From: a phage
Length of the DNA: 64,000 bases
Direction: 5' to 3' (one strand)
Assembly (NCBI GenBank): GCA_024614665.1
Contig: GCA_024614665.1_4861.1
How positions within the stretch are numbered: position 1 is the first letter of the stretch; each line of letters begins with the position of its first letter. The position numbers and the translations under genes were made by a program. A model generated the notes under the pieces. It saw only the letters and a list, made by a program, of their open reading frames with translations. It had not been told where the DNA came from and made no database searches. Positions 4,035-63,605 of the stretch are shown one piece after another.

Positions 4035-4695
4035 AAAGACGAGCTTCGAGGTCGTCGATAATGGTATCTGTGAAATAGCTAATATCTAGCTGCTCCACGA
4101 AATCCCTGCGTTCCAGAATGCGCTCTGCGAAGAGCGTACCGTACCAACTAGGGACATTACTAACGCCGTTGCGTCCGAACTTCTGCTGGACATGACCAAC
4201 GGCATGGAATTTTGCATCACCTTTGCTTTTACCCTGTTCACGGGCAAACAGATAAGAACGGTGCATGTAATTGCTCACGTCATCTACAGACGGTATACCA
4301 CGGTCAGCTGCGGCAACTATCTCAGAGACAATCCCGTTGTAGTTCCCTTTGTGAGAACTGCGGTGTTCTAAGACTGCATGGGCAATCGTCAAACATTCAT
4401 CATCGGTAAGTTTATACTTACGTTTGAGCACTGGCTTGTTATCCAGTATCCAGCTATACCCTTTGATGTGGTGCGACGCACGGTCTTCTTTGGTAGAGAA
4501 GATGTCGTGAGCTGCCACCGCAATCAGTATCAGCTTCAGGTGTTCGGTTTGCCCAAGCATATACGCGATACGAATCGCATTTGATTTAACTGAGTTGATG
4601 TGATCCATGCGATGCGCACTATCGGTATAACGATAGAAGTCGCGGAATTGACGAACCAGTTTTTCCCAAAGTTTGTTGAGTTCAGTGCCCTGCAT
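4024..4695 (-). CDS. HD-domain phosphohydrolase
   Basis: 223 aa; H...HD metal-binding signature (HRMDH ... AVAAHDIF) typical of the HD superfamily. Confidence 0.55.
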   Translation of the reverse strand: MQGTELNKLWEKLVRQFRDFYRYTDSAHRMDHINSVKSNAIRIAYMLGQTEHLKLILIAVAAHDIFSTKEDRASHHIKGYSWILDNKPVLKRKYKLTDDECLTIAHAVLEHRSSHKGNYNGIVSEIVAAADRGIPSVDDVSNYMHRSYLFAREQGKSKGDAKFHAVGHVQQKFGRNGVSNVPSWYGTLFAERILERRDFVEQLDISYFTDTIIDDLEARLSHD

Positions 4696-4710
4696 GTAAA
4701 TATTCCTTAC

Positions 4711-4730
4711 GGTAATGGTCGATTAACTAC
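4711..4730 (-). promoter_or_regulatory. TTAATCGACCATTACC element upstream of SD
   Basis: Minus-strand TAG TAGTTAATCGACCATTACC GTAAGGAATATTTAC ATG; fills the 34-nt gap between two genes. Confidence 0.45.
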
Positions 4731-5119
4731 TACGAGAATGTGTGATAACAACGTGTCAGTGTAACTTTCACGTTATCAGAATGGTCTTCGTTGGTATACA
4801 CCACCGGCCAGATAATGTTATCAGACGAAAGCGTCTTTGATAACCCTTCAATCAATTCCTTCATTGAGGTTCCCTTCAGCCGATGGGTCGTACGCCACCT
4901 GTGTGACGTCATACGGCTATAAACCACCATATCTGGTGTAAGGGTACTACTTTCCTCTTTAATCTCCTCTAAACGCTTCTCCTCGCTTTCTACGAAGCTT
5001 AGTAAAGCATCTGGATTTCGAACAAACTCACCGAAACGATCGTCTCGGCGCAAGCCACAAAGAACCCATAGCGTAAATGGATCTCTGCACGCATCTACCA
5101 ACCCCTCTGCGATTTTCAT
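4730..5119 (-). CDS. hypothetical protein (paralog of 5174-5572?)
   Basis: 129-aa ORF; N-terminal DPF...LC motif shared with the adjacent gene. Confidence 0.5.
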   Translation of the reverse strand: MKIAEGLVDACRDPFTLWVLCGLRRDDRFGEFVRNPDALLSFVESEEKRLEEIKEESSTLTPDMVVYSRMTSHRWRTTHRLKGTSMKELIEGLSKTLSSDNIIWPVVYTNEDHSDNVKVTLTRCYHTFS

Positions 5120-33729: not shown

Positions 33730-34564
33730 CGATTCCTAGTTTCTTCAAAAGTTCGGTTCGATCAAACGTACTGTCCTCAGGATCGATATGTTCAGCTATC
33801 ATCTCAATCAGATTTGGTAGCCAGTCCCAGTGTGCTGGGAATATCTTACGCCCTTGCATCATGTAATAATGCTTAAGCGGGATACGTGCTCGCAGAATCT
33901 CTGCAAATACATTACCTAACGATGTCCCGTCGACCGACAGTATAAAGAGTTTATTTACCAGCGCATGGATAAAACGGCTTTCTGTAACCGGGGTAAATGA
34001 ACCGGGCTTATAACTGGTTCCTCCGTAGATTTCCGCTTTCAGATTACGACCTAGCCGGATACAGTCGGTGCCATCTAGTGCACGCAACTTCTCAATATCA
34101 GGCCAGGTGTTCACTGCCTGTCGCATGATATCAAATTCCATCACCAGAGTGCGGTCATCAATCTCACGCATCAGGTAATCCAGAATACGCAGATAGTGGT
34201 AATAACCCTCGAGCGTTCGGAAAGGCCCGTGGGGGGTAACAAAATACTCACCAGGGCGAGCATAGAAGTTACTCGCCATCCGACCTATCTCAGTTCGACC
34301 CTGCGAATAGATGTTGAAGTGATTCAGACCGTCTGTAGACGGCGTGATATCCACCAAGGTACTCTGGTAACCCATACGCAGTAAATAGCGTACAAAGGCT
34401 TCCTTTTCTTCTGGTGGGAGGATGGGACGTAAAACAGGATATGTGGCTTCTACCGAGGCGGGCAACGTAAACCCAAAAGCAGCCGCCAAAGCATCCACCG
34501 ATGCACCATCGACACGTAGACGTTCCAACGCACTACGCAAAAACTTACCTTCATCTTTCGACAT
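33713..34564 (-). CDS. hypothetical protein
   Basis: 283-aa ORF. Confidence 0.5.
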   Translation of the reverse strand: MSKDEGKFLRSALERLRVDGASVDALAAAFGFTLPASVEATYPVLRPILPPEEKEAFVRYLLRMGYQSTLVDITPSTDGLNHFNIYSQGRTEIGRMASNFYARPGEYFVTPHGPFRTLEGYYHYLRILDYLMREIDDRTLVMEFDIMRQAVNTWPDIEKLRALDGTDCIRLGRNLKAEIYGGTSYKPGSFTPVTESRFIHALVNKLFILSVDGTSLGNVFAEILRARIPLKHYYMMQGRKIFPAHWDWLPNLIEMIAEHIDPEDSTFDRTELLKKLGIDDGTI

Positions 34565-34573
34565 AGAGGTACC

Positions 34574-35848
34574 TTACAAGGCGAAATAGCTCTGCACCAG
34601 CGTACTGGCAGACTGATATTGGACACTACCACCGGCGATAACGTACGGACGTTTCTCGGTGGTCAGGAGTGCTTGAATCGCATTACTGTTGGCGTACGTG
34701 TAAAGCTTAAGCTCAACCATTCCAGGATTCGTTTTAGAGATATCCCAGTTCGGATTAAGCGCTTTAAACAACGTCAACAGTCGTTGGCCGTAGGTGCTGT
34801 AACCCACACCCGGCTCAACGTTAAGGTTCATCAGAAGATTCTGAATAACAGTATCTGCAATCTCAGCACCTTGACCTGGCTGTAGTTTAGGCAAGTAATA
34901 CTCAACAGAATTGAGATTGCCCGAAGCCGCAGCCTGTATCATCAGTTCGCCGTACAACGCTTGTTGTGCAACAGGATCGGTGATAGCCTGAATCATCGGA
35001 TCGATGCGATTCGGCAGACCGTATTGATTGAGCTTCGTGGACATACCGTATATCAACGCAGACGAGGTGTTGATATCCAGCGAGGAGAAATTCCCACTCC
35101 CGCCCGTAAAGCTATCAATGATCCCGTCGATAGACAAGAAGTCGTCCAGGTCCTTAAAGCTATCGAACGTGTGTGTAACATCGTCAATCAGTGCAGTGAC
35201 TTGCCATTTGGCGCTATTGGCCATGTCGACGTAGTTACCGATTTCACGTTGCACCTCACCAGGCAGTTTGGCAAGCTGTCCCGCGATGTTCATCGTGGAC
35301 TCCAGGCGAGCTTTCACCGACGCATAATCTGTCCCGACCGCGCTTAAAGCGCTATCGCGAAGATCAGTCAGCGTATCCCATCCCTTACTTAACAGGCTAC
35401 CTGCGCCACCCGGTGAGAGATAGCTCAGTGCAGTTTTCCCTTCCTGGTTTACCTTCTGAAAGGGTTCGGACACATCGCGCTTCTGCGGATCGATAACCGG
35501 CAGCGCTTCTTTCGTGTTGGAAGCAAAAGTAGGCACACGTTGTGGCGGCGATACTCCGGAAGCCGCTGAACCTGCTGCCTTTTTACCGCCTACCGTGACT
35601 TGGTCACCACCACCGAACACGTTACCAAATTTCTCACTTATCGTGTTGCCAATGTTGGAGATCTTGTCGAACGTCTCTCCGGCTTTAGCAGTTGCGTTAT
35701 TGTACAAATTTTGAGCACTTTCAATACCGCGCTCGGCATTACCAATCGTTGACTGGACACGGTTTTGAACATCGTTAACTTTGTTCTCTATTGCGCCCGT
35801 TGTGCTGCTTATCTGGTTGGTAATCCCATCAAGGTTGTTCAGTTTCAT
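34574..35848 (-). CDS. hypothetical protein (Gly/Ser/Asn-rich, possibly structural)
   Basis: 424-aa ORF. Confidence 0.5.
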   Translation of the reverse strand: MKLNNLDGITNQISSTTGAIENKVNDVQNRVQSTIGNAERGIESAQNLYNNATAKAGETFDKISNIGNTISEKFGNVFGGGDQVTVGGKKAAGSAASGVSPPQRVPTFASNTKEALPVIDPQKRDVSEPFQKVNQEGKTALSYLSPGGAGSLLSKGWDTLTDLRDSALSAVGTDYASVKARLESTMNIAGQLAKLPGEVQREIGNYVDMANSAKWQVTALIDDVTHTFDSFKDLDDFLSIDGIIDSFTGGSGNFSSLDINTSSALIYGMSTKLNQYGLPNRIDPMIQAITDPVAQQALYGELMIQAAASGNLNSVEYYLPKLQPGQGAEIADTVIQNLLMNLNVEPGVGYSTYGQRLLTLFKALNPNWDISKTNPGMVELKLYTYANSNAIQALLTTEKRPYVIAGGSVQYQSASTLVQSYFAL

Positions 35849-39474: not shown

Positions 39475-40968
39475 TTATTTCTTCTTAGTCAAGAACTTCG
39501 GTTCCAGACCATCCACGGCCATCGCTAGTAATGACATTGCTGTTAAACAACGCTTACCACCTTTGACTTCCTGATCCTTGAACATCCAGTATTCCACCGT
39601 ATTGTCCAGAATTTCATTCCAGTCCCACTTTTCGTCGATAACCTTATAAAGCTCCGCCGGTGAGAGATGATATTTCATTTCCAGTCGGTGGTAGTTGTTC
39701 TGCATATACGCTAACGCAGCAGTGATTTCCAATGCCCTACGTAAACGCGGATTGCTGTCACACATGTCGCGAATCGTGGTACGCATGAAAGATGTACCAG
39801 GTAACAAATCGAGGGTATAATTAGCACCACTACGTTTGTAGCCCCATTCATCTTTCAGTGTGTCGCTCAGGTAATGCCACAGAGAGAGGTGATAAAGCAG
39901 ACCCATCTCCTGTGAGAAGACCATTTTGAACTTAACGCCTGTGTGACCACCTTTCGCACGGTACTGCGTGAAGACGATTTCTTTCAGGTCGTTTACCGAA
40001 GCATTCATCGCTTTTGAACGCGCAGTCGGGTATTTCTCTTCGTTTACACCGGTCTTCGCGTTGTAAGTCTGATCCTGCTTCAACTCACCAGACTTGGTTG
40101 CAACCAGCAGGGAGTTAGTTAAGAACGACAACTGACGACGCGGAATACCCGCAAACTTCAAATCATCGCCAGCATCGTCTAGCAGTTTACCGTTCGCTTT
40201 CGGTCCACCGCGACCGCCGGCAGCCATCGCCTTACCAGCATCGTCGGCCAGTTGAGCAACAAAGCCCATGTAGAAACCGCCACGCGCGAATGCAGATGGC
40301 CAACGACTCATCATGTTAGACTTTTGCAGCGCGTCGTGGGCGTTCAGGATGTTCTGTTCGGAGTCACCGACTTCTGATTTGGCATGTTTCTCTTCCAGAG
40401 AAGAGGTGTGCCATTCAGACAGGGAGTCAATCGAGTACAACCACGGGTCGAGAATCTTTTTCGCAGAGCGGCGAATTGGGTCCGGGAACGGCGTTTCGCG
40501 CGCTTTACCAGCCATATACTCTTTGAAACGTTTTTCGACTTCATCACGAATATAGGCAGAGTAATATTCTTCACCTGCCATGATATCCGAGCCAACCATG
40601 TTGTAACGACCTTCGTGGATCAGGTCCAGCACGCCGCCTGTTGGTGATACTTCTAATCCGTTTGCTTTCGCAGCGGAGATGTACCCCGTTTCCAGACGAC
40701 TTAATGCTGCCGTAACTTCGGTATCGTATTTCGATCCCCAGGCTGCATTATAACGTTGCAGAATCATGAAAATGCAGAAGTCTAATAAGGTAGACTTAAA
40801 AGTGTTCCCACGACCTGCGAAGCCCATGATGTGGGCAAAACCACCGTTGAGGTAGTACAAACCATCTTCCCCGCGCTCGTAGTTACCGAGAGCGTGGTCC
40901 ATGATGGTATATACGTTAAAACGAGGGCGAATTACTTCACCCATGACTTGTTTAGCTGGACCTGCCAT
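39475..40968 (-). CDS. RecA-fold ATPase, UvsX/RecA-like recombinase candidate
   Basis: 497 aa; atypical Walker A GRGNTFKST (compare T4 UvsX GPSKSFKS as I recall it) and Walker B-like LYSIDSLSE (compare UvsX VVFIDSLGN); spacing between the motifs is longer than in RecA. Confidence 0.35.
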   Translation of the reverse strand: MAGPAKQVMGEVIRPRFNVYTIMDHALGNYERGEDGLYYLNGGFAHIMGFAGRGNTFKSTLLDFCIFMILQRYNAAWGSKYDTEVTAALSRLETGYISAAKANGLEVSPTGGVLDLIHEGRYNMVGSDIMAGEEYYSAYIRDEVEKRFKEYMAGKARETPFPDPIRRSAKKILDPWLYSIDSLSEWHTSSLEEKHAKSEVGDSEQNILNAHDALQKSNMMSRWPSAFARGGFYMGFVAQLADDAGKAMAAGGRGGPKANGKLLDDAGDDLKFAGIPRRQLSFLTNSLLVATKSGELKQDQTYNAKTGVNEEKYPTARSKAMNASVNDLKEIVFTQYRAKGGHTGVKFKMVFSQEMGLLYHLSLWHYLSDTLKDEWGYKRSGANYTLDLLPGTSFMRTTIRDMCDSNPRLRRALEITAALAYMQNNYHRLEMKYHLSPAELYKVIDEKWDWNEILDNTVEYWMFKDQEVKGGKRCLTAMSLLAMAVDGLEPKFLTKKK

Positions 40969-46602: not shown

Positions 46603-48117
46603 TTACACCTCTTCTTCTCGCAGTATGCGACGGTTTGCGTAATACGCACACCACAACCCATGATACTCTTTACCGATATAGATTAAGAAGTAACGGATGT
46701 AGTATTTTTCAGGACGACACACCGCGATGTAATAACGGCCTTCCGGTTCTTTAATACGGTTGATTTCCGTACGCGATGGAATATCGATGCCGCGAGTCAA
46801 AATAACCGAGACAGGTCGTTTACCCATCGGAAAGTCAATCTTTAACGTTATTGACTTATCGACGCTACGGTAGTATTCCTTGACAGGTTTACCTTTGTCG
46901 TCGAATAGCAAGTCGGTAATGTCGTTTAAGACATAACCCTTTTCCTGATGCAGAACATCTCGCAACGTTGTAGCGAGTTCGTCACGAATATCCAGCGCAC
47001 GGTACGACAATAAGGGCGGGCGAAGCATTCTGGAGATGGCCAGGTCTTCAAAGAACCAGACATTGGAATCTTCTCCACTGAAATGCATCTTGTCTGCCGG
47101 TAATCCATCACCTGCCACATCAACGAACTTCTTACGTTTAACGAACTCATTGTTAACAACACCGATTGGATCATACTGCCGCATCTTCGGTGTATCTTTC
47201 CATGCCAGGGCGGCGTGGGTGTTTACAATCGTGTAGATGTTATCCCACGGTTGTTTAGTGAACATTACGGAAAAGTGTGCATCAGGAATCATTTTCCCAA
47301 TAAACACCAAGTCGTCCTTGTTCTTTGCATGGTTACCACCAAACATGTAATAGAAAGTTTCATCTTTCACTTTTACAGTAGGATGGTCCTCGTTCACCAA
47401 CGGATAGCAATATTTAACCGTACAAATCGGCGGATATGCCGCAAGGTTCATCCCAGCGGCGATGGGCTCGGGTTCCGCGGATGCAGGCAACTCATCTTTC
47501 GACCAGTACGGCTGATATGGAACGCCGTCGTTGGTCGCAGTGATAGCTGAACCTTTTCTAGCCAATTCGTCCGCCCGGTCGTTACCGTAGTGGCCGGAGT
47601 GTCCTTTGATTTTGATAACCTTAACACCCCGTCCTTCTTTTTTCATCTGCTGTTTGATTTCCCAGATACGAACAATAAGTTCTTTGTTCGCCAGCGGAGT
47701 ACCGTCAGCACGAACCCAACCACGTTTATGCCAGCCGTCTATCCACTCGTTAAAAGTGTTTACAACGTAACTGGCATCCACGTAGATGATATAGTTCTTC
47801 GCGCGGAAGGGTGCGTTCTCAAACAACGTGATGAAGGCGATTAACTCGCCCACATCTGAGTAGAACTCTTTCGGAACGGGAATAACGGCGTCGACAAATT
47901 GAACGGTGTCCGGCAACTCCGGACACTTCACATCCTGCGGCACTTTTTTGTATCCAACAGTGGTAATCCGTTCTGAAACACCCGGATGGCTATAAGCCTG
48001 ACTGTCTTCCAAATCTCCGTTGTTGAATAAATAACCATGAATACCAGCCCCCGAACCTTTCGGGGACTCAGTATGACTACCATCGGTATAAATAACCGCT
48101 ACGTCGACGTCTTTCAT
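46603..48117 (-). CDS. RNase HI-domain protein fused to a C-terminal domain of unknown function
   Basis: N-terminal 200 aa align to E. coli RNase HI as I remember it (VAVIYTDGS, YVDASYVVNTFNEWIDGWHKRGW, KGHSGHYGNDRADELA); about 300 additional C-terminal residues have no recognisable motif. Confidence 0.65.
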   Translation of the reverse strand: MKDVDVAVIYTDGSHTESPKGSGAGIHGYLFNNGDLEDSQAYSHPGVSERITTVGYKKVPQDVKCPELPDTVQFVDAVIPVPKEFYSDVGELIAFITLFENAPFRAKNYIIYVDASYVVNTFNEWIDGWHKRGWVRADGTPLANKELIVRIWEIKQQMKKEGRGVKVIKIKGHSGHYGNDRADELARKGSAITATNDGVPYQPYWSKDELPASAEPEPIAAGMNLAAYPPICTVKYCYPLVNEDHPTVKVKDETFYYMFGGNHAKNKDDLVFIGKMIPDAHFSVMFTKQPWDNIYTIVNTHAALAWKDTPKMRQYDPIGVVNNEFVKRKKFVDVAGDGLPADKMHFSGEDSNVWFFEDLAISRMLRPPLLSYRALDIRDELATTLRDVLHQEKGYVLNDITDLLFDDKGKPVKEYYRSVDKSITLKIDFPMGKRPVSVILTRGIDIPSRTEINRIKEPEGRYYIAVCRPEKYYIRYFLIYIGKEYHGLWCAYYANRRILREEEV

Positions 48118-48836
48118 TATTCTCCTCGCAACTGCGGTGGAATGTATTCACCTGTGCACATTTCGCGGTGGGCTTCTAACATGCGCTCGAAGCCGTACGT
48201 ACGCGCGACCAGGGCCAAATGATAGATGCGTGCCGTAGAATACGCTTCCTTCGCAGCATCAAAGCTAGCGTTATGCTCGTACGCTTCTTTGCCACGGGTC
48301 CAATGGTGCGCTTCTGCGTGCCAGTTAGGTTCCAGGCCAAACGCATATGCAATACGCTCTGCAGTCCGGTCAGAGTCCAATATAGAAAACTTGCGGTACT
48401 TGCCCGGCGGGATATCGCACTGCGCGAACGCGTTCATCAGAATTGGAGCATCGAAATCGGGACCGCGCATGGTGATAACCATTTTCACGTTGCCCAGATC
48501 ATCCAACCATTTTTTGGCCGCCCACAGTGCTTCTGGCAGTGGCGTGGTCCCAGAAAACGCTTCAACACGTGCTTTCTCGCTCGGTGCGTATTCGGGGTCG
48601 CCTTTACCTTCCCAATAGCCGACCGTTTGTGGATCGATGTAGAAGATTTCTTTTGCTTTTGCATCGTTAGGGTCGATTTTGTGGTAACACGAACCGATCA
48701 TTTTCATTGTCGGAACATCGAATGCCACGTTTGCCAACGTTAAGATGTAGGCATCTGGACGTAAAGCCAGGGTCTCTAAGTCTGTACCAACAACCACGGT
48801 TGGTGTTAAAACAGGCAGAATTTTAGGATAGGTCAT
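48117..48836 (-). CDS. DnaQ-like (DEDDh) 3'-5' exonuclease
   Basis: 239 aa; GTDLET (Exo I D-x-E), PDFDAPIL (Exo II) and HNASFD (Exo III H-x4-D) in the expected order. Confidence 0.6.
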   Translation of the reverse strand: MTYPKILPVLTPTVVVGTDLETLALRPDAYILTLANVAFDVPTMKMIGSCYHKIDPNDAKAKEIFYIDPQTVGYWEGKGDPEYAPSEKARVEAFSGTTPLPEALWAAKKWLDDLGNVKMVITMRGPDFDAPILMNAFAQCDIPPGKYRKFSILDSDRTAERIAYAFGLEPNWHAEAHHWTRGKEAYEHNASFDAAKEAYSTARIYHLALVARTYGFERMLEAHREMCTGEYIPPQLRGE

Positions 48837-56063: not shown

Positions 56064-56074
56064 TTTAATGCTCC

Positions 56075-56338
56075 TTAGGGTAAAGTTGCCTCCCAGTCGT
56101 AACGGTGAGGCTCAGGCAGCGTACCAAGCGCTGCTTTAATACACGTACTCAGCGGAGTATCATCGAACGCAACACGCCCGATAGTACCCACGTTGATGTG
56201 TTTTGGATTTACGGGTAAGAACTCCTTCACCCGCTCGTACTCAGCCCAACAGATATCGGTGTTTAAAGCTGAAAACCCAGGACGGTGAAACATAAATAGC
56301 ACTCCTCGCGTAAAAATACCCCACTCATAGTGAGGCAT
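56075..56338 (-). CDS. hypothetical protein
   Basis: 87-aa ORF. Confidence 0.45.
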   Translation of the reverse strand: MPHYEWGIFTRGVLFMFHRPGFSALNTDICWAEYERVKEFLPVNPKHINVGTIGRVAFDDTPLSTCIKAALGTLPEPHRYDWEATLP

Positions 56339-56363
56339 AATCGTAAGGAGTGCTAAAACAGGA

Positions 56364-56852: not shown

Positions 56853-57013
56853 GAGCTGAATTCCTAAGTGAGCTTTCACCTGCAATGAAAGCGTGTGACG
56901 AAGAATTGCGTTTGTGTTTTCTTAAGTTTACCGGTAAAGCTTAGCGGTGTATACCGCCACAGATGAAGACCAGTTCTCTATCGGAACTATGTCTTTAATC
57001 AGCAACGACGTTT

Positions 57014-57277
57014 TCAACGTCGTGATGCTGAGGTAACCTTCCGTCGCCACATTCGCTCATGGCGCTTCTGATTACCACGCCAGTCTTCCCCGACTGTACG
57101 TGAAACTGCAAAATCATCCGGCCCGCAGACTTCCGCGATGTCTGCTAAAAGGTTCTTTGAAGACCCTATAGCCATCCCCACGCTAGAAAGAACGATACGC
57201 CGGGTTGGCTCGGCCGCCCCTAAACCCACGACCACGGGATCAGAGACTGTTTCACTGCTACATGTTGTTTCTCCCAC
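57014..57277 (-). CDS. hypothetical protein
   Basis: 87-aa ORF, GTG start with strong AGGAGGG SD; its stop lies inside a long hairpin. Confidence 0.5.
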   Translation of the reverse strand: MGETTCSSETVSDPVVVGLGAAEPTRRIVLSSVGMAIGSSKNLLADIAEVCGPDDFAVSRTVGEDWRGNQKRHERMWRRKVTSASRR

Positions 57278-57295
57278 TTCGTAATTACCCTCCTG

Positions 57296-57391
57296 TTAAA
57301 ACCAACCTTGCGTCAATGCAAGGATTGCGCCTAGGGCGTATGCGCCTGCTCCTAGTATCAGGCTACAGACGATACACCCAATCCATTTCAC
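57296..57391 (-). CDS. mini membrane peptide (31 aa), cassette member e
   Basis: GTG start overlapping the stop of the upstream peptide (TAGTG); sequence KWIGCIVCSLILGAGAYALGAILALTQGWF is one hydrophobic helix. Below the ORF-track size cutoff; found by manual translation. Confidence 0.3.
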   Translation of the reverse strand: MKWIGCIVCSLILGAGAYALGAILALTQGWF

Positions 57392-57522
57392 TAAAATAGC
57401 CACGTTACTACAAACGCTCCGATTGCGCAAACGATAAACGTGATACCAACATCTGTCCAGGTGGCACCGTCATACGCACCCGTTGCAATCATCGCCGCGT
57501 TGACACTATTCACGACTGTCAT
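57391..57522 (-). CDS. mini membrane peptide (43 aa), cassette member d
   Basis: ATG with AAGGGA SD; MTVVNSVNAAMIATGAYDGATWTDVGITFIVCAIGAFVVTWLF; start overlaps the upstream gene end. Confidence 0.35.
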   Translation of the reverse strand: MTVVNSVNAAMIATGAYDGATWTDVGITFIVCAIGAFVVTWLF

Positions 57523-57709
57523 AAGCCGGGTCCCTTAAACGTGGGGGCTTGCTCCACAGATTACCGAAGTAAACCCCTTCTAAGAACACCAAAACAACTA
57601 ATCCCCAAAAGGCAGGCGTGGCACGAGACAAGAAAATACCCAGCAGCACCGCAGTGTGCATTACCACAACTGCCCAAAACTTTAAACGTCGCGGTTTACG
57701 TGTTGCCAT
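57506..57709 (-). CDS. small membrane protein (67 aa, two TM helices), cassette member c
   Basis: Start placed at ATG 57709 (MATRKPRRLKFWAVVVMHTAVLLGIF...) with AAAGGA SD; overlaps neighbours on both sides. Confidence 0.4.
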   Translation of the reverse strand: MATRKPRRLKFWAVVVMHTAVLLGIFLSRATPAFWGLVVLVFLEGVYFGNLWSKPPRLRDPAYDSRE

Positions 57710-57800
57710 GGAATGCCCATCCTTTCGTGCGGATAATCCAATCCCAGGCACCACGAATTAACCACAGCGCAATACCGGTTAGTACAATACCTTCGATCAT
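57696..57800 (-). CDS. mini membrane peptide (34 aa), cassette member b
   Basis: ATG overlaps the TGA of the upstream gene (ATGA); MIEGIVLTGIALWLIRGAWDWIIRTKGWAFHGNT. Confidence 0.3.
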   Translation of the reverse strand: MIEGIVLTGIALWLIRGAWDWIIRTKGWAFHGNT

Positions 57801-57988
57801 GACCGTTCCCCTACATCTCGCCACTCACAACGTGTGTCGAACAGACGTTCTTTAAGAGCAGCAGCTAAATAAACAACCGCAGCGATAACCACTACGGTTG
57901 CACAAAAGGAGAGGTACAGTACCATCACAACAAACTGAAGGAACTGAAAACCCCACCAAGCCCATAAGCGCCAACCTTTATGATGCAT
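57797..57988 (-). CDS. small membrane protein (63 aa, two TM helices), cassette member a
   Basis: ATG lies within the last codons of the SbcC-like gene (11-nt overlap); hydrophobic WWGFQFLQFVVMVLYLSFCATVVVIAAVVYLAAAL. Confidence 0.4.
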   Translation of the reverse strand: MHHKGWRLWAWWGFQFLQFVVMVLYLSFCATVVVIAAVVYLAAALKERLFDTRCEWRDVGERS

Positions 57989-60488
57989 ATTTGATTATTA
58001 CCCCTTCGTTATAAACCGGTGGAAGCGTTACACCTTCTGGCTCGACGACACAGTAGGTGGCTTCGTTAAGTTTAGAATGAACTTCCGCTTCATGCGAAAC
58101 GACCAGTAATTGAGAAAACTCTCCCGACAACGCCAACGATTTAATGAAGTTAACTAATCGGTTTTTGTGTTCTTCATCCATGCCTTCAGATGGTTCATCC
58201 AATAACAAAGGATAGTTTTGTAAACCAAGCGCTTTATACGCCGTTAAACGAAACATCATGTTAAAGATAATACGCTGTGCTTTTGAACCTTTCTTCACAT
58301 CCGGTACCAGTTCTACATGGTCTTTTAATCGCACAGGGAACGTGTAGTCCAGATCCCCGTCGGTTAGATCGCACGGAATAACCTGCATCGGATATGCCCA
58401 CACCATTTCGATATACCGATTCATTAAATCCATGATGCGGGTAATCGCAGCGTAGAAGTAACGTCTCAGTAAACCTTTTTCAGGAGAAACCGCATTAATA
58501 ATCAGTCTGGCATGGTGGTGTTCTTTGAGCAACTCAGCTTGCTCTTTTTCCAGTTCCGCTAAACGTGCAATAGCCCCTTCCATTTGACGAAACCGTTCAC
58601 GAGCTGAAGTATACGCATCGAGCTTCGCTTCGCGGCGGTTTAACAACTCACGAACTACGACGTTGTTAACGGAGATGTTCATTTCCGATACCAGATGTTC
58701 GTAGCCCTTTTGGAAACGTTCGATTGCTTCTTTGGTTTGTTGCAGTTGGGTGGTTTCGCGTTCCAGCTCATTGGCTTGTCTGCGGTATTCTATCAGTCGA
58801 CGGTTAGCCCCGTCTAGTTGTGAACGGATATGTTCAATTTTCTGGCTCAGAGCACCATCAACATTACCTACTGCGGCAACAGCCTCTTGCCATTCCCGTT
58901 CCGCTGTTGCAAGCTTCGCTGATTGACGCAGATACATCATGGCCGAATCTAACTCTTCGGTAAAGGCACGTGCAATGGCACCATATCGATCCCGCGCCGT
59001 GGTGAAGATATCCAGCTCCTGTAGTTTACGGAAAAACAAACCGACAACGGGATGATTGGAATACGACATGACAATTTCGCGAATCGTACGTAGGCTACGG
59101 ACGTCCTCTTCAATCTCTTTGCGGTCACGCAAAAGACTATCCATTTCGTCTTTCAGCTGTTTTTTCCAACCTTCATTATCGTTGATGGCCTTTTCAATTT
59201 CAGGTAACGACTTACGAATCCCAGGACGGAAACGGTGGTTACACTGTGGACAATCAACTTCTGCAGTTTCTAAGAAGTGTTGACGGTCGTGGTATAAACC
59301 GTGTAGCACATTCTCACAACGTTGCAACTTTTCAGATAGACCCGCAGAGGTTAAATCCATACCCTGTAAACGCTTCTCTAACGCTCCTAGGCGCTCTGTT
59401 GTCTTTAACTGGTCCAGATGCATGGACAACGGTAAATTCCAGTTACAGGCGTCGTTTAACGCGTTCTGAATGCTATCCACGTCGATGCGGGTACCTTCAA
59501 ACAGAGCCGGGAACATCCAGTTCTGTTGGAACGTTGCCAGTTCCTGTTTTAAGCTGTCGATTGTTTGTTTTAGACCGGTATGGTTACGCATCAGATACGC
59601 TTGACGCGACTCCTCATCCAGTAGCTGTGACAACTCTTTATTGTACATGTTGCATTCAGTTTCAGCGGAGGCAGCTTGCTCACGCCAGGCAACCACACGA
59701 CTTTGAAACTCGTTAATCAGTTCGTCAGAAGGCAGAACGCCATAACGTTCCATAATGAGTTTTACAGCCGGTTGCAACGAAGCAATGCGTTTCCGGATAC
59801 TGTCAACCGAAACAGCGTTATCTAAACCGGGCCTTGCTTCAATTGTGCGGTTTAATTCTTGAAGCTCAGCATCGAGTTCTTTCAAACGAACTTCTAAACG
59901 TGCACGATCTTCTTCATCGTCAACGACGCGCATTTTTGCTTCGCCGATTTTTCGTCCGGTGTGTTCGATGGCCCCGCTTAAACTGGAAGCGAGTTTACGC
60001 AAACGTCGATAGCAGCCAACAACGTACGTCAGATCAGATTCTGACATTAACGTAAACCATTTACGACGAACTTCGGTAGTGGCGTCAGTTAATAAGGTCT
60101 CACCATTAATTAACTCTTTGATTTCTTTGGTGATTCCGGTTAATTGCTCCACCATGGAGTTGTAAACTTTGGCGTTTACCGAGTCCACAATGGGGACGCC
60201 TTTGGTGATATTGAAAATACTACAAGACAAAGAAGACCCACGTCGCAGGACTTCAAACTTAAGACGGTCGTCCCCGACTAACGCGTAGTTAGTGTAAGAA
60301 CCACCTTCACGGAATTCAGATTTTGCTGGAGCTAAGGGGAGAAAAACAGATAGGAGGCTTGTTTTACCGCAACCATTCCCACCAAGGATAATGGTAACGG
60401 TTGATTTAAGGGTGAAATCAAACGTTTCGATTTCATGTAACCCCATGCCGGTAAATCCTTTCAAAATGATACGTTCGACCTTGAGCAT
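57978..60488 (-). CDS. Rad50/SbcC-like SMC-family ATPase
   Basis: 836 aa; N-terminal Walker A GGNGCGKTSLL, long central coiled-coil-like region with CPQC zinc-hook-like motif, C-terminal Walker B LLLDEPSEGMD and H-loop-like VVSHE. Confidence 0.6.
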   Translation of the reverse strand: MLKVERIILKGFTGMGLHEIETFDFTLKSTVTIILGGNGCGKTSLLSVFLPLAPAKSEFREGGSYTNYALVGDDRLKFEVLRRGSSLSCSIFNITKGVPIVDSVNAKVYNSMVEQLTGITKEIKELINGETLLTDATTEVRRKWFTLMSESDLTYVVGCYRRLRKLASSLSGAIEHTGRKIGEAKMRVVDDEEDRARLEVRLKELDAELQELNRTIEARPGLDNAVSVDSIRKRIASLQPAVKLIMERYGVLPSDELINEFQSRVVAWREQAASAETECNMYNKELSQLLDEESRQAYLMRNHTGLKQTIDSLKQELATFQQNWMFPALFEGTRIDVDSIQNALNDACNWNLPLSMHLDQLKTTERLGALEKRLQGMDLTSAGLSEKLQRCENVLHGLYHDRQHFLETAEVDCPQCNHRFRPGIRKSLPEIEKAINDNEGWKKQLKDEMDSLLRDRKEIEEDVRSLRTIREIVMSYSNHPVVGLFFRKLQELDIFTTARDRYGAIARAFTEELDSAMMYLRQSAKLATAEREWQEAVAAVGNVDGALSQKIEHIRSQLDGANRRLIEYRRQANELERETTQLQQTKEAIERFQKGYEHLVSEMNISVNNVVVRELLNRREAKLDAYTSARERFRQMEGAIARLAELEKEQAELLKEHHHARLIINAVSPEKGLLRRYFYAAITRIMDLMNRYIEMVWAYPMQVIPCDLTDGDLDYTFPVRLKDHVELVPDVKKGSKAQRIIFNMMFRLTAYKALGLQNYPLLLDEPSEGMDEEHKNRLVNFIKSLALSGEFSQLLVVSHEAEVHSKLNEATYCVVEPEGVTLPPVYNEGVIIKYAS

Positions 60489-60540: not shown

Positions 60541-60573
60541 TAAAAAAGAAGAAATGGAACCCCGAAGGGTTCC
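60541..60573 (-). terminator. intrinsic terminator
   Basis: Hairpin GGAACCC TTCG GGGTTCC followed on the minus strand by ATTTCTTCTTTTTTAC. Confidence 0.6.
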
Positions 60574-60584
60574 AGAGAGGAGAG

Positions 60585-61211
60585 TTATTGCGGAATAAAC
60601 TTACGGTGTCCGAGTGATTCCCAAAAACTATCGGTGCGCTCTTTGGTTAATTCATACCACGCACGCCCGGCATCAGAATCGACAACCTTTAACGTTTCAG
60701 TAAGCAGGAATTTGAACAGTTCAGCGCTACGACCGGGTGCTACACCGTCGAGATATATCGGAATTAAATAACCGGTTTTGATTTCTTCGTACGGTTGCGA
60801 TTGGTGCTGACCAACAACCCAGGCGTCAGCCGCGCTACCGACCAAAGTGGTGTTTACAGTTAACTCATCAGAAATCCAGTTAACGGTATCAGCCATTATT
60901 GAATCGCCATTGACGTAGAAGAAAACTAAACGTTTAGGTTGCTCCACCGAACCGGCCAAATCTAATGCAGTAGTTCCGGTGAAGATCGTATTATTGGGAT
61001 TACGTTCTGCAATAGGTAGAGCAAACCACGCTTCGAGCTGTTCCCAGCTACGCGGCAGTGCTTCTTTAAACCACTTCACCAATCGCGGGTATTCCAGAAA
61101 CCCTTCTACCTCTTCTTCCATCAGATTGATACGCAGTTTGGTATCCTGACGATTCGCTTTCTGACATGTCACCATGTCATCGATGAAACGAATCAGGGTA
61201 ATTTCGTTCAT
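60585..61211 (-). CDS. hypothetical protein
   Basis: 208-aa ORF; no Mre11/SbcD phosphoesterase motifs. Confidence 0.5.
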   Translation of the reverse strand: MNEITLIRFIDDMVTCQKANRQDTKLRINLMEEEVEGFLEYPRLVKWFKEALPRSWEQLEAWFALPIAERNPNNTIFTGTTALDLAGSVEQPKRLVFFYVNGDSIMADTVNWISDELTVNTTLVGSAADAWVVGQHQSQPYEEIKTGYLIPIYLDGVAPGRSAELFKFLLTETLKVVDSDAGRAWYELTKERTDSFWESLGHRKFIPQ

Positions 61212-61265
61212 GTTTAATCCTTCTTCAACAAAAAAAGAAGGTAGCCCGTAGGCTACCTCTCGTAT

Positions 61266-61766
61266 TTACAGCCCCATATGCATAAGGGAAATGATAGGGA
61301 CTTTTCGGCCACGTATCATTGCATACGGTTCGTACATTTGTGCGTTAGTTTCGAATAACTCACAGGCCGGAATACGATCGCCGGTAGAGAGTTGTAAGAC
61401 TTCGATTTGGTCGCCCCAGAAGTTATTCACTAATACGTGGTCGACAGTGTTGTCTTCACGACCTTCAGGGGTTTTGCAATAAGTGGCGGCATCGTACCAA
61501 CCTTTGCGGTATACTTCATAACCCGCGTGAAGCATCCGGTAGTACGGACGCAGTTGTGGGGCATTCAACGCAGCATCTAGCCACTCGCTGTGAATGCTGT
61601 TAATCAACACGGTCGCTTCTTCTGGCCACTCGCTGCGGTTTAGGGTTAACTCGCCTAACAGCTTTAACTTCCAGCCAGTGGAAAGAATAGCGCGGGTACG
61701 TTCTGGATTGACGTTCATCTGAGTAAAGAAAGTAGAACGAGTATCGTCAAGAATGTTCATGTTCAT
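61266..61766 (-). CDS. hypothetical protein
   Basis: Start placed at ATG 61766 (MNMNILDD) with TAAGGA SD; the longer ORF-track start would run through the regulatory element and terminator. Confidence 0.5.
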   Translation of the reverse strand: MNMNILDDTRSTFFTQMNVNPERTRAILSTGWKLKLLGELTLNRSEWPEEATVLINSIHSEWLDAALNAPQLRPYYRMLHAGYEVYRKGWYDAATYCKTPEGREDNTVDHVLVNNFWGDQIEVLQLSTGDRIPACELFETNAQMYEPYAMIRGRKVPIISLMHMGL

Positions 61767-61782
61767 TTGCTTAGTCCTTACG

Positions 61783-61802
61783 AGTAATAGTCGATTAAAA
61801 AG
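61783..61802 (-). promoter_or_regulatory. TTTTTAATCGACTATTACTC element upstream of SD
   Basis: Minus-strand order: terminator T-run, TTTTTAATCGACTATTACTC, GTAAGGA SD, ATG. Confidence 0.45.
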
Positions 61803-61804
61803 GA

Positions 61805-61866
61805 CCCTGCGGCTATGTGTTGGGGATATCACCGCAGGGCCAAAGTGAGATGGGTCGTCATCTCAC
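61805..61866 (-). terminator. tandem hairpins, putative terminator
   Basis: Hairpin GTGAGATG/CATCTCAC (61845-61866) and hairpin CCCTGCGG/CCGCAGGG with a large loop (61805-61839) followed on the minus strand by TCCTTTTTAAT. Confidence 0.4.
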
Positions 61867-61895: not shown

Positions 61896-62279
61896 TTACT
61901 GGTCGAGCGCTACTGAACCACGCACCACTCCTTGCTGTTCAATAACCAGGAGGCGTTGTTTGGTTTTCGTATTGTAAGCGAGCGACGCGCGAAGCGTCGG
62001 GTCGCACGTTATTGTCTCTACTGGCACAATCTCTTGTGCCTTTGAGTTCAACAAAAAGTAGTAACCTGCCGGACAAGTTTCCTCGCCCTTTGCGTGGACC
62101 AGGATGTACTCGTCGTGCCGGCTGACTTCTTCACATCTACCATCATCCCCAGTACAGACTTCGAACGAAGGCGGGTTGTACTGATACGGTGTGCCTGGTA
62201 GTAAATCTTCTACGCTAGTTGTAGCTGAAGCAGAAGCGGTAAAGAACACCGCCACGATAATACCCATAAATCCACGCAT
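61896..62279 (-). CDS. secreted protein (signal peptide)
   Basis: 127 aa; N-terminal MRGFMGIIVAVFFTASASA signal-like segment; AAGGAA SD. Confidence 0.5.
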   Translation of the reverse strand: MRGFMGIIVAVFFTASASATTSVEDLLPGTPYQYNPPSFEVCTGDDGRCEEVSRHDEYILVHAKGEETCPAGYYFLLNSKAQEIVPVETITCDPTLRASLAYNTKTKQRLLVIEQQGVVRGSVALDQ

Positions 62280-62292
62280 GTTGTTTCCTTAC

Positions 62293-62703
62293 TTAAAAGT
62301 CGAGTTTATTGATGCCTACGTTTTTCTTAATCGTAGGGTCATACATGATAACCGTCAGGGCATTATCACCTGGGTCGCGAGTAAACTCAGCAACGGCTTC
62401 ACCACTGCAGGCCTGGTTATCATTATAGTTCATGGTTTCGGCTTGCCCGGTTGCCATGTTAATAACCCCGTATTCCGGGTCGCCACATGCGACGCCGCCC
62501 ATCGTTTTCACTAACAGGTAACGGTTGTTATCGGACATCGCAACGATCTGGCAGCTACCGCCTTGTACGTCAGAGTTCTGGCACCAGAACTGGCCGCCGT
62601 ATTCGTGATCGTTAACAACTTTTGGTAACTCGATACTTCCAGCACGAGCGAAGAAGCTAATGGCCAGAGTAGCAAGTAAAACTGGTAATAAAAAATGTTT
62701 CAT
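62293..62703 (-). CDS. secreted protein (signal peptide)
   Basis: 136 aa; N-terminal MKHFLLPVLLATLAISFFARA signal; GAGGTG SD. Confidence 0.5.
   Translation of the reverse strand: MKHFLLPVLLATLAISFFARAGSIELPKVVNDHEYGGQFWCQNSDVQGGSCQIVAMSDNNRYLLVKTMGGVACGDPEYGVINMATGQAETMNYNDNQACSGEAVAEFTRDPGDNALTVIMYDPTIKKNVGINKLDF
62296..62308 (-). promoter_or_regulatory. variant of the TTAATCGACTAT upstream element
   Basis: Minus-strand AAACTCGACTTTT AAGTAAGGAAACAAC ATG. Confidence 0.3.
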
Positions 62704-62725
62704 AATAGCACCTCAATTTTTTGAG

Positions 62726-63217
62726 TTATTCTGAATAGTCGATTGTTTTGATAGTTTCCATACCGTAGTACATAGCGATGGAGGCCAGAGTTTTGGTATC
62801 CGGTCGCTGTACAAAACCGGCCCTGAAATCTTTGCTGCAAATTTTCTCCACTGATAGTTCATCACGATTAGGGATAAGCCATAACGCGTCACCGTTGTGA
62901 CGGTCGACTGCACCCCACCAACCACCTGGGCAATCTTTATCGCCCGGACGGTGTACGATAGCGACACGTCCGTTGAAGGATATGTCAACTACACGACACT
63001 GTTTCTTAAGCAGCTTACGCGCATTGCACCAGAACGGCTTATCATTAAGATTGATGGTGCGGGTATATGCTGGAATGCTGCCGTTAATACTGCCCTGGAA
63101 CCCGCTGAATTCGTCAGCGCGTGCCTTAGAAATCCGTAGCCCAACAACAAGTGCCATCAACAGCACAGTAAAAAGCACCACTTTGGCCAAGTGGCGATTA
63201 ACGTTATTGCATTTCAT
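62726..63217 (-). CDS. secreted protein (signal peptide)
   Basis: Start placed at ATG 63217 (MKCNNVNRHLAKVVLFTVLLMALVVGLRISKARA) with GGAG SD. Confidence 0.5.
   Translation of the reverse strand: MKCNNVNRHLAKVVLFTVLLMALVVGLRISKARADEFSGFQGSINGSIPAYTRTINLNDKPFWCNARKLLKKQCRVVDISFNGRVAIVHRPGDKDCPGGWWGAVDRHNGDALWLIPNRDELSVEKICSKDFRAGFVQRPDTKTLASIAMYYGMETIKTIDYSE
62733..62745 (-). promoter_or_regulatory. AATCGACTATTC element
   Basis: Minus-strand CAATCGACTATTCAGAATAA overlapping the last codons of the upstream gene, about 35 nt before ATG 62703. Confidence 0.4.
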
Positions 63218-63605
63218 TTTTAATATCTCCACGATTAAGGGTGATGCGACCGACGAGCACATCGTTGTGATAAAAACTCACAGCAACCAGATCTGGCAAT
63301 TCCAACGGCGATACACTGACCGAGGTGACTTTTGGTTGATTGCACGATATGTCGATTAATCGCTGATACATTTTCAATTTCTTATCAGCGATAACCAGCC
63401 CTGTGCAGTTCTTACCGTCCGTCAGTCTGTAGATTTGTAACTGTTCGACCTCACGCATCAGTTCCGGTTTTTCATTCGGTGCAATGGCATAATCCGAATC
63501 AGCTGATGTGTATTCAGTCACGTCTGGCTTATCGAAAGCATAAGTTGCTGCAATACCACATGCGGCCAGAACTACTACTGCTTGTAAGAACTTCTTGATA
63601 GTCAT
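63204..63605 (-). CDS. lipoprotein
   Basis: 133 aa; signal peptide with lipobox VLAACG. Confidence 0.5.
   Translation of the reverse strand: MTIKKFLQAVVVLAACGIAATYAFDKPDVTEYTSADSDYAIAPNEKPELMREVEQLQIYRLTDGKNCTGLVIADKKLKMYQRLIDISCNQPKVTSVSVSPLELPDLVAVSFYHNDVLVGRITLNRGDIKNEMQ
63227..63240 (-). promoter_or_regulatory. variant of the TTAATCGACTAT upstream element
   Basis: Minus-strand CCTTAATCGTGGAGATATTAAAA ATG. Confidence 0.3.

Follow-up and report, generated by a model that had tools for sequence, protein, structure and literature searches.

In E. coli and T4, the genes for the ATPase and the nuclease of an SbcCD-type pair are adjacent or nearly so. The 64,000-nucleotide stretch of phage DNA analysed here (the window) contains an ORF that a preliminary description took to be a Rad50/SbcC-like ATPase with no Mre11/SbcD nuclease beside it, leaving the partner to be elsewhere in the genome, highly divergent, or absent. 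We asked what this ATPase is and where, if anywhere, its nuclease lies. The ORF is very probably the gene for the Rad50/SbcC-type ATPase subunit of an Mre11-Rad50 (SbcCD-like) complex that an SPN3US-like jumbo phage of Salmonella, one of the nucleus-forming kind, encodes for itself. The lack of linkage mirrors the gene order of this phage family, in which genes are generally scattered, and does not mean that a partner is missing.

The ATPase gene of an SPN3US-like jumbo phage

The window shares 96-98% nucleotide identity with SPN3US-like jumbo phages (Seoulvirus, Chimalliviridae), the divergence from SPN3US being 2-4% of nucleotides plus an indel of ~512 bp a few genes away from the ATPase gene. 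The predicted protein is 99.8% identical in amino acid sequence to its SPN3US counterpart and matches the SbcC-like family phrog_77 at 4e-96. From these sequence matches, we identify the ORF as SPN3US gp186 (ACQ60_gp080), a homologue, or orthologue, of phiKZ ORF165. The identification is not a chance result, given the phrog_77 match together with motifs that are invariant or nearly so in 152 homologues of 21% median identity.

Table 1. Window features, with residue numbers of the ATPase and conservation counts in its family.
Feature	Position (nt)	Strand	Residues (aa)	Remarks
Rad50/SbcC-type ATPase ORF	57978-60488	minus		ATG start; 836 aa; 95.65 kDa
Walker A / P-loop, GGNGCGKT	60360-60383	minus	36-43	G36, N38, K42 152/152; G39 150/152; G41 151/152
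CPQC, putative zinc hook	59241-59252	minus	413-416	C413 151/152; P414 138/152; C416 152/152
ABC signature-like, GSKAQ	58275-58289	minus	734-738	S735 152/152; Q738 138/152
Walker B, LLLDE, and D-loop Asp771	58176-58208	minus	761-765, 771	D764, E765 152/152; D771 148/152
H-loop, VSHE	58089-58100	minus	797-800	H799 151/152
63-aa ORF, SPN3US gp187	57797-57988	minus		Overlaps the ATPase stop codon by 11 nt; phrog_16515 at 6e-29
Neighbouring ORF	57506-57754
Neighbouring ORF	60585-61211
Neighbouring ORF	61266-61832
Terminator-like hairpin	60555-60574	minus		8-bp stem, CTTCGG loop, T-run; consensus match only; between the upstream gene and the ATPase start
UvsX-like recombinase gene	39475-40968	minus		phrog_97 at 3e-55
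RNase H-domain protein	46603-48117
Rv2179c-like 3'-5' exonuclease	48117-48836

The same gene is found in two described pairs, gp186 with gp27 in SPN3US and ORF165 with gp065 in phiKZ; in SPN3US it is also flanked as in the window, the 63-aa gp187 included. Thomas et al. (2016, J Virol; PMC5105663) described gp186 as an essential SbcC subunit and gp27 as SbcD, with the two genes "drastically separated". They gave gp186 a mass of 95.7 kDa, the same as that of the window ATPase, found no detectable BLASTP similarity of gp186 and gp27 to T4 gp46/47, and noted ~300 more residues between the head halves of gp186 than in T4 gp46; gp187 is also treated there. In phiKZ, no transposon insertions were tolerated in orf165 (PMC12676376, PMC12571901), and knock-down of the gene gave a mild phenotype only (PMC12571901). 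Thus, the ATPase gene, its partner, their separation, and essentiality are already known from a 2016 publication on SPN3US and renewed work on phiKZ in 2025. The window ATPase shows no difference of substance from the SPN3US gene, for which separation from the SbcD gene, essentiality, and motif content are all on record.

Motifs and fold place the ATPase closest to Rad50

Conservation was counted in 152 homologues of the ATPase family, with smaller sets of 14 and 60; the family members listed are mostly 810-850 aa long, and a second word-index search with the 14-sequence alignment as query returned the same 46 proteins and none new. The motifs confirm a bipartite ABC head, with Walker A in the N-terminal part and the signature, Walker B, D-loop, and H-loop in the C-terminal part, all invariant or nearly so in each of the three sets. 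The Walker B/D-loop/H-loop block also aligns with the corresponding block of P. furiosus Rad50. These motifs and the CPxC are kept across the 152 homologues (Table 1), the Q-loop excepted: at the position assigned to it by eye, residue 128 (N128-G129), the family has T, I, L, or N, followed by a conserved G129. HMMER alignments to Rad50 stop short of this region, which leaves the assignment insecure.

An AF2 model of the ATPase (mean pLDDT 80.7) runs in order from head through coiled coil, apex, and coiled coil back to head, with an outgoing helix at residues 139-407 and an antiparallel returning helix at 428-696. The 20 residues between them (408-427) are the sole non-helical stretch between the coiled-coil helices and hold the CPQC; at this apex we found no SMC-type globular hinge, the model having only ~20 residues with the CPxC and no added domain. 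The CPQC is thus placed as a putative zinc hook by sequence and model. With the 80-residue hook segment alone as a profile, no solved Rad50 hook was matched significantly (1L8D, E = 0.05; 6ZFF, 0.13), so the case for hook homology is made by where the motif sits and by its invariance, and sequence similarity does not contribute. The top match of that profile, NOX5, was discarded as a chance CPxC match.

Rad50 heads were the best PDB matches whether we searched with the single ATPase sequence (1e-4), a 14-sequence profile (1e-6), or a 60-sequence profile, for which P. furiosus Rad50 came top at 7e-12 with both lobes aligned. With the last, the five best matches were all Rad50 heads (7e-12 to 7e-11), and SMC matches aligned via the coiled coil only; E. 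coli SbcC was not among the PDB matches of the 14- and 60-sequence profiles. Curated Rad50, SbcC, and SMC models all matched far below their family cut-offs, including the NCBIfam Rad50 models at 1e-11 to 1e-15, and Pfam gave SMC_N and AAA matches that were sub-threshold only. A Foldseek search with the model placed Rad50 (7ZR1) first at 4e-21, with the best SMC match (Smc5/6) at 3e-16. Among PADLOC models, those of LmuB had numerically the best profile E-value (2.7e-20), DndD, JetC, and PtuA being weaker.

By profiles and the AlphaFold model, we place the ATPase closest to Rad50, over other SMC-class families. The preliminary reading of the ORF as a Rad50/SbcC-like ATPase with Walker A, CxxC, and Walker B is therefore borne out by the motifs, the phrog_77 match, and the Rad50 matches, and its placement also holds when Rad50 is compared with other SMC-family proteins, since the heads match Rad50 best, even with LmuB numerically ahead among profiles. 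The ATPase shares with archaeal and eukaryotic Rad50 (P. furiosus; Mre11-Rad50-Nbs1 of C. thermophilum and human) a split ABC head, a long antiparallel coiled coil, and a CPxC apex, and it is of the same order of length as archaeal Rad50 (NCBIfam models of 878-888 positions). These proteins are its best sequence and fold matches, yet identity in the fold alignments is only 8-14%. Its gene, unlike theirs, is not adjacent to mre11, and the Q-loop glutamine, at the by-eye position, is apparently not conserved. To our knowledge, the phage system has no Nbs1/Xrs2-type third subunit.

The probable nuclease partner is encoded elsewhere

Searches near the ATPase gene yielded no nuclease of the expected class. 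The four neighbouring ORFs (Table 1) have no phosphoesterase domain, an HMM of the phage SbcD-like nuclease family matched nothing (best E = 2.6) when run against the window's 530 stop-to-stop segments, and the motif set D-x-H, GDxxD, and GNH[DE] occurs in no ORF of the 64 kb. The absence of a phosphoesterase from the neighbouring genes, as first described, thus extends to the whole window: the ATPase gene is neither adjacent to nor in an operon with a nuclease gene there. Such adjacency is typical of the family, not defining. Two candidates for a neighbouring partner were rejected. A Proteus phage 7 gene labelled 'nuclease SbcCD subunit D' seemed to be an adjacent nuclease and proved to be the ATPase gene, mislabelled; the upstream 208-aa neighbour has no similarity to the phiKZ gene at the equivalent position. 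The immediate neighbours of the ATPase gene differ between SPN3US-like phages and phiKZ.

A homologue of gp27 is present in 34/34 SPN3US-like records at 98.7% nucleotide identity or more, and it is through these close relatives that the partner of the window ATPase is known. On the circular map its gene lies ~92 kb from the ATPase gene, outside the window, and the separation of the SbcD-like and ATPase genes is 92-147 kb in SPN3US, SPLA3, and SaP7 and 114 kb in phiKZ; the two are far apart in every record with comparable positions. By tblastn, phiKZ-like phage records contained the SbcD-like gene in 290 cases and the ATPase gene in 298, with matching genus counts.

The SbcD-like protein matches phrog_100 at 1e-52, and its profile aligns with T. 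maritima Mre11 over the full length (residues 2-363) at 2e-9, the best 15 matches all being Mre11/SbcD. The catalytic and metal-binding His and Asp residues of calcineurin-like phosphoesterase motifs I-V are kept: D22 and H24 of motif I, H101 and D102 of motif III, H180 of motif IV, and H212 and H214 of motif V are invariant in the family, as is D58 of motif II in 23 sequences (nearly so in 33). Motif III reads GTPSHD instead of the canonical GNHD and so lacks the Asn ligand. The Pfam Metallophos model did not match the protein, and none of 49 relatives carries a precomputed Pfam domain. An AF2 model (pLDDT 91.5) comprises a phosphoesterase core, a second alpha/beta domain at residues 264-341, taken as the capping domain of an Mre11-type fold, a linker, and two helices (356-363 and 371-381); the 15 best Foldseek matches were all Mre11, with 3THO first at 5e-12. 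In the model, the C-terminal helix-loop-helix corresponds to the Rad50-binding element typical of Mre11, and we infer a binding function from this likeness. We conclude from sequence and model that gp27/gp065 is a divergent but genuine Mre11/SbcD homologue. Next to the nuclease gene, a gp066-like protein follows as a conserved companion.

Because an SbcD/Mre11 homologue is encoded elsewhere in every sequenced close relative, the split arrangement is the normal, published state of this phage family, and the anomaly implied by an unpartnered ATPase falls away. Of the three options for the partner, location elsewhere is correct, high divergence is right in part (the protein escapes Pfam Metallophos), and absence is contradicted by the 34 records. 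As a discovery the arrangement carries little weight, being correctly described but ordinary; its use is in calibration. A nuclease gene that is not seen beside the ATPase gene, in a window covering 64 kb of a 240-kb jumbo-phage genome, need not be lacking from the phage, since functionally linked genes are scattered in this family. The partner would also be hard to pick up by motif or Pfam scans, having no Metallophos match and a variant motif III.

A proposed phage Mre11-Rad50 complex and its alternatives

By analogy with Rad50-Mre11, SbcCD, and T4 gp46/47, the ATPase and nuclease are predicted to form a complex with ATP-dependent nuclease activity. Upon ATP binding, two ATPase heads would clamp DNA ends, while the CPxC hooks would dimerise via zinc and the C-terminal helix-loop-helix of the nuclease would dock at the base of the coiled coil. 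Known systems suggest that the complex would then resect or open DNA ends and pass them to the phage UvsX-like recombinase encoded in the window (Table 1), the likely downstream user of resected ends, whose homologue in phiKZ, Nlp1, is a recombinase that localises to the nucleus (PMC12676376). Both recombination-dependent replication and the repair of breaks would be served in this way, probably within the phage nucleus.

E. coli SbcCD, T4 gp46/gp47, and T5 D13/D12 are likewise two-subunit systems of an ATPase and an Mre11-class nuclease that process ends and hairpins. Recombination-dependent replication of T4 requires gene 46, and SPN3US gp186 is essential as well. The phage pair differs from those of E. 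coli and T4 in the distance between its genes and in the GTPSHD form of nuclease motif III.

The lack of linkage and the terminator-like hairpin before the ATPase gene could mean that the SbcD-like protein acts alone or with a partner other than this ATPase. The apparently unconserved Q-loop glutamine (by-eye position) points the same way, and Smc5/6, condensin, and MukB are strong full-length fold matches for the ATPase (1e-16 to 1e-12). We consider this very unlikely. SMC and MukB carry a globular hinge, whereas the phage ATPase ends in a 20-residue loop with an invariant CPxC, a Rad50-type tip; its head-domain sequence matches are to Rad50, those to SMC proteins running through the coiled coil only; no kleisin or MukEF-like partner is evident near its gene; and its co-occurrence with the Mre11-like gene is near-perfect across the family. 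It is more improbable still that the ATPase pairs instead with another nuclease or with an adjacent small protein. The window does encode an Rv2179c-like exonuclease and an RNase H-domain protein, 10 kb away, and the 63-aa membrane-like ORF overlaps the ATPase stop codon, yet none of these candidates is Mre11-class, the neighbours are not those of phiKZ, where the upstream gene has no similar counterpart, and every genome encodes a bona fide Mre11 homologue with the C-terminal helix-loop-helix.

Lamassu LmuB, Wadjet JetC, SMC, and MukB share the superfamily architecture of an ABC head with a coiled coil and gave significant profile and fold matches, LmuB structures appearing in the fold search at about 1e-10. 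Together with the PADLOC result, this might suggest that the phage carries the protein as an ABC/SMC ATPase for defence or counter-defence, LmuB-like or otherwise. Such matches are to be expected, since LmuB is itself Rad50-like, and the fold search ranks Rad50 above LmuB. The matching solved SMC, MukB, and JetC chains have 1000-1470 residues, compared with 836 aa here. LmuB, JetC, SMC, and MukB work with kleisin-type or effector partners; the apex of the phage ATPase is instead minimal, with a CPxC, its partner throughout the family is Mre11-class, and neither an LmuA-type effector nor another defence partner is encoded next to its gene. Unlike an accessory defence gene, it is a vertically inherited core gene, essential in SPN3US and insertion-free in phiKZ. 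On gene context and core-gene status, we rejected a defence-system identity (LmuB and others), which is scarcely credible.

With the Mre11-Rad50 pair as the preferred reading, we regard it as doubtful, though conceivable, that the phiKZ-like pair is a mechanistically divergent variant of the machine, not merely a diverged copy. Arguing for such a variant are an ATPase that apparently lacks the canonical Q-loop glutamine (by-eye position) and a nuclease with GTPSHD, and hence no asparagine, at motif III; the placement of the two genes in separate conserved blocks throughout the history of the family, which might permit separate timing or stoichiometry; and conserved companions, namely the gp066-like protein and, at least in SPN3US-like phages, the small membrane-like protein at the ATPase stop codon. 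The variant pair might have adapted to working within the phage nucleus or to being imported into it.

Minor features of the locus

An Rfam scan of the window gave no match, and sigma-70 promoter-like sites were not enriched in it (6 found, 6.0 expected), as anticipated of a phage that supplies its own RNA polymerases. The consensus match of the terminator-like hairpin suggests that a new transcription unit begins with the ATPase gene. The genes flanking the ATPase encode phage proteins of unknown function, an acetyltransferase, and a macro-domain protein. The 63-aa ORF has a single hydrophobic, transmembrane-like segment (top 19-aa Kyte-Doolittle window, 2.7), and its product, gp187, may be functionally linked to the ATPase.

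The ATPase is a member of the Rad50/SbcC class

The ATPase open reading frame (ORF) agrees exactly with the one in the preliminary description, including its Walker A, CxxC and Walker B motifs. The PHROG profile for SbcC-like subunits, phrog_77, covers the entire ORF at 4e-96, and when 1.84 billion representative proteins were searched exhaustively with a profile, 1,526 relatives were found at E <= 1e-30, those listed being mostly 810–850 aa long. On these two grounds, we conclude that the ORF is a real gene. Residue conservation was counted in an alignment of 152 family members (median 21% identity to the query), in which the presumed Q-loop residue (aa 128, nt 60105–60107; position assigned by eye) is T, I, L or N, not Gln.

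Features of the ATPase gene, its surroundings and the nuclease locus. Conservation is given as the number of 152 aligned family members.
Feature	Position	Strand	Details
ATPase ORF	57978–60488	−	ATG start; 836 aa; calculated mass 95.65 kDa
Walker A, GGNGCGKT	aa 36–43 of ATPase		G36, N38, K42 152/152 each; G39 150; G41 151
Central CPQC (hook)	aa 413–416 of ATPase		C413 151/152; P414 138/152; C416 152/152
Signature-like GSKAQ	aa 734–738 of ATPase		S735 152/152; Q738 138/152
Walker B, LLLDE	aa 761–765 of ATPase		D764, E765 152/152
D-loop	Asp771 of ATPase		148/152
H-loop, VSHE	aa 797–800 of ATPase		H799 151/152
63-aa ORF (SPN3US gp187; phrog_16515)	57797–57988	−	11-nt overlap with the ATPase stop codon; a single strongly hydrophobic segment
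Terminator-like hairpin	60555–60574	−	just upstream of ATPase gene
UvsX-like recombinase gene	39475–40968		phrog_97, 3e-55
gp066-like gene, 278 aa	SPLA3 33918–34754; phiKZ locus 4243–5073		

Curated models matched the ATPase weakly, every one under its cut-off: Pfam SMC_N at 6e-7, NCBIfam Rad50 models at 1e-11 to 1e-15, an archaeal SMC-related NCBIfam model at 1e-19 and PADLOC LmuB at 2.7e-20. Among solved structures, the Pyrococcus furiosus Rad50 head was the top match in all three sequence and profile searches. Its E-value was 1e-4 for the ATPase sequence alone, 1e-6 for a profile of 14 sequences and 7e-12 for a family-wide profile of 60, which aligned both ATPase lobes; SMC2 and SMC6 matches to the last profile were confined to the coiled coil. 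The ATPase as modelled by AlphaFold2 (mean pLDDT 80.7) has an N-terminal beta-rich lobe, a helix out (aa 139–407), an apex of 20 non-helical residues containing CPQC (aa 408–427), a helix back (aa 428–696) and a C-terminal lobe. When this model was compared with the PDB by Foldseek, Chaetomium Rad50 from the Mre11-Rad50-Nbs1 complex ranked first (4e-21), ahead of Smc5/6, condensin, MukB, LmuB and JetC (3e-16 and weaker). As caveats, the hook segment alone had no significant match among solved Rad50 hooks (1L8D, E = 0.05), and the presumed Q-loop residue is not Gln. A minimal CPxC apex without a hinge domain sets Rad50/SbcC, and the ATPase with it, apart from SMC, MukB and JetC. The Rad50/SbcC-like identity first proposed from motifs is correct.

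No phosphoesterase gene adjoins the ATPase gene

The ORFs flanking the ATPase gene carry no phosphoesterase domain. Across the whole 64-kb window, an HMM built for phage SbcD-like proteins gave no hit among all 530 stop-to-stop segments (best E = 2.6), nor did any ORF contain D-x-H, GDxxD and GNH[DE] together. The earlier observation that no phosphoesterase gene adjoins the ATPase therefore extends from the immediate neighbours to the entire window.

Over the 8 kb around the ATPase gene, identity is 96–98% to jumbo phages of the SPN3US type (genus Seoulvirus, genome about 240 kb) from Salmonella, E. coli and Proteus, with SaP7 the closest relative over this stretch (98.3%). The ATPase itself is 99.8% identical to SPN3US ACQ60_gp080, annotated as a 'putative SMC domain-containing protein', and 21.5% identical to phiKZ ORF165 across its full length (tblastn). 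In SPLA3 (OR413581.1), the counterpart of the window lies at roughly 176–240 kb of the record, in reverse orientation. A 'nuclease SbcCD subunit D' label in Proteus phage 7 (MT679221.1, 4492–6960) was considered as a neighbouring nuclease and rejected, as it marks a mislabelled ATPase gene. The SbcC-like ATPase gene of MET_P1_082_240 (OQ383623.1) is labelled likewise, and this mislabel could mislead annotation transfer.

A divergent SbcD-like nuclease is encoded elsewhere in related genomes

PHROG annotation places an 'SbcD-like subunit' gene at 32.9–33.9 kb of SPLA3. As the record is numbered, the ATPase gene lies 147 kb off, or about 93 kb going the other way round the circular map; in SaP7, about 92 kb separates the two. 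Nucleotide search found the SbcD-like gene in 34 of 34 SPN3US-like records at 98.7% identity or more, and it is intact in SPN3US (21,017–22,165; 383 aa) and whole in other relatives too. The 5' end of the SPLA3 copy is split by a short tandem duplication (OR413581.1, 32679–33921) that repeats the coding sequence for 'IVDVIREVLISCENTLDAFYIAGDLFDDSRH', leaving ORFs of 71 and 353 aa. Faulty assembly could explain this, as could genuine disruption of a gene inferred to be essential.

Pfam Metallophos does not match the SbcD-like protein, precomputed Pfam domains are present in none of 49 relatives, and motif III reads GTPSHD family-wide versus the canonical GNHD/E; for these reasons we regard the protein as divergent in sequence. 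phrog_100 matches the protein at 1e-52. Searching the PDB with a 23-sequence profile gave a full-length match to Thermotoga maritima Mre11 (2e-9); the top 15 entries were all Mre11 or SbcD, with LpxH the next family (0.05). Catalytic and metal-binding residues D22 and H24 (motif I), H101 and D102 (III), H180 (IV) and H212 and H214 (V) are invariant down to 25% identity, as is D58 (II), which is nearly so in a wider 33-sequence set. In an AlphaFold2 model (pLDDT 91.5, pTM 0.82), the phosphoesterase core is accompanied by another alpha/beta domain and a flexible linker, and the two terminal helices of this prediction resemble the element through which Mre11 binds Rad50. In a fold search with the model, Mre11 structures took all of the first 15 places, with the T. 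maritima Mre11:Rad50 complex at the top (5e-12). Together, these matches, conserved residues and the model show that the SbcD-like label is not merely an annotation artefact.

The preliminary description had left the partner as elsewhere, highly divergent or absent. 'Elsewhere' holds in all the SPN3US-like records and 'highly divergent' holds in part, given the missing Metallophos match, but 'absent' falls. An SbcD/Mre11 homologue elsewhere in the genome is the outcome that the preliminary description itself named as refuting, and the ATPase is no partnerless anomaly.

Both genes co-occur, unlinked, across phiKZ-like phages

By tblastn, 298 phage records contain the ATPase and 290 contain the nuclease, with almost identical genus counts: 81 of each in Pseudomonas, 62 in Erwinia, 21 in Serratia, 19 in Aeromonas, 16 in Klebsiella and 13 in Ralstonia. 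Salmonella has fewer nuclease than ATPase records because the SPFM records are indel-ridden; the nuclease gene is there at the DNA level. About 12 of them (LR535901–LR535917, e.g. H160, H170–H179) break into 15–17 BLAST pieces over 972 bp, reflecting dense small indels, probably sequencing errors, and yield frameshifted SbcC-like and SbcD-like proteins (P0038–P0045, P0078, P0081, P0083).

A distance of at least about 80 kb separates the two genes in every record listing both positions, including SPN3US, Asesino, phiKZ, Phabio, RisingSun, pAEv1810, pEt-SU, PA02, SPLA10 and BUCT660. SPLA3 and phiKZ do not share the genes on either side of the ATPase. The SbcD-like gene sits inside its own conserved block, and the next gene overlaps it by 4 nt; the SPLA3 version is orthologous to phiKZ gp066 (30% identity, 3e-33), a core gene, itself uncharacterised, whose knock-down has a phenotype. 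Their adjacency raises the question of whether the two proteins work jointly.

Prior work and a proposed mechanism

SPN3US gp186 (95.7 kDa, the phiKZ ORF165 homologue) was found essential via an amber mutant by Thomas et al. (2016, J Virol, PMC5105663), who listed the same ATPase motifs, called gp186 the SbcC subunit and gp27 the SbcD subunit, and compared gp187, the 63-aa transmembrane protein immediately downstream, with T4 gp47.1. An antisense screen lists phiKZ 165 in the core genome as an 'SbcC-like nuclease' whose knock-down had a mild effect (PMC12571901). Comparative papers place SbcCD among the most conserved jumbo-phage functions (PMC11448039, PMC13282480), and phiKZ Nlp1, a homologue of the UvsX-like recombinase, is nucleus-localised and repairs nuclease damage (PMC12676376). 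Thomas et al. also described the SbcC and SbcD genes as far apart, and this unlinked arrangement is the published norm for the phiKZ-like family. Minor sequence details not found in the cited literature are the non-Gln presumed Q-loop, the GTPSHD motif III and the gp066-like neighbour of the nuclease gene.

The architecture, conserved catalytic residues and co-occurrence of both subunits, and the essentiality of the ATPase, are established here or by others. Our model of mechanism draws on Rad50-Mre11, SbcCD and T4 gp46/47. By analogy, ATP would drive engagement of two ATPase heads on DNA, the hooks would dimerise via zinc and the nuclease would dock at the coiled-coil base. The complex could then resect or open DNA ends, which the UvsX-like recombinase of the phage would use in repair and in recombination-dependent replication, probably inside the phage nucleus.

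Other features around the ATPase gene

The terminator-like hairpin upstream suggests that the ATPase gene heads its own transcription unit; 11 such sites were found versus 5.1 expected, about twice the number in shuffled sequence. GC-rich hairpins with T-runs occupy consecutive intergenic gaps at 60555–60574 and 61238–61259 (−), with loops TTCG and TACG. In phiKZ, the ORF that corresponds to gp187 by position lies on the other strand. A stretch of about 620 bp (56886–57505) downstream of the ATPase/gp187 unit matches no Rfam family, and the SPN3US annotation there has only very small ORFs (40–67 aa). At ~56064–56363, the window, SaP7 and SPLA3 have one 87-aa ORF and SPN3US has two (172 and 69 aa), accounting for a ~512-bp difference between genomes otherwise 96–98% identical. 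Finally, four consecutive small ORFs (127, 136, 178 and 133 aa) at 61896–63605 (−) begin with hydrophobic stretches resembling signal peptides, and their products may form a small secreted or membrane protein family. Compared with phiKZ, they may be an insertion that separates the baseplate block from the ATPase gene.
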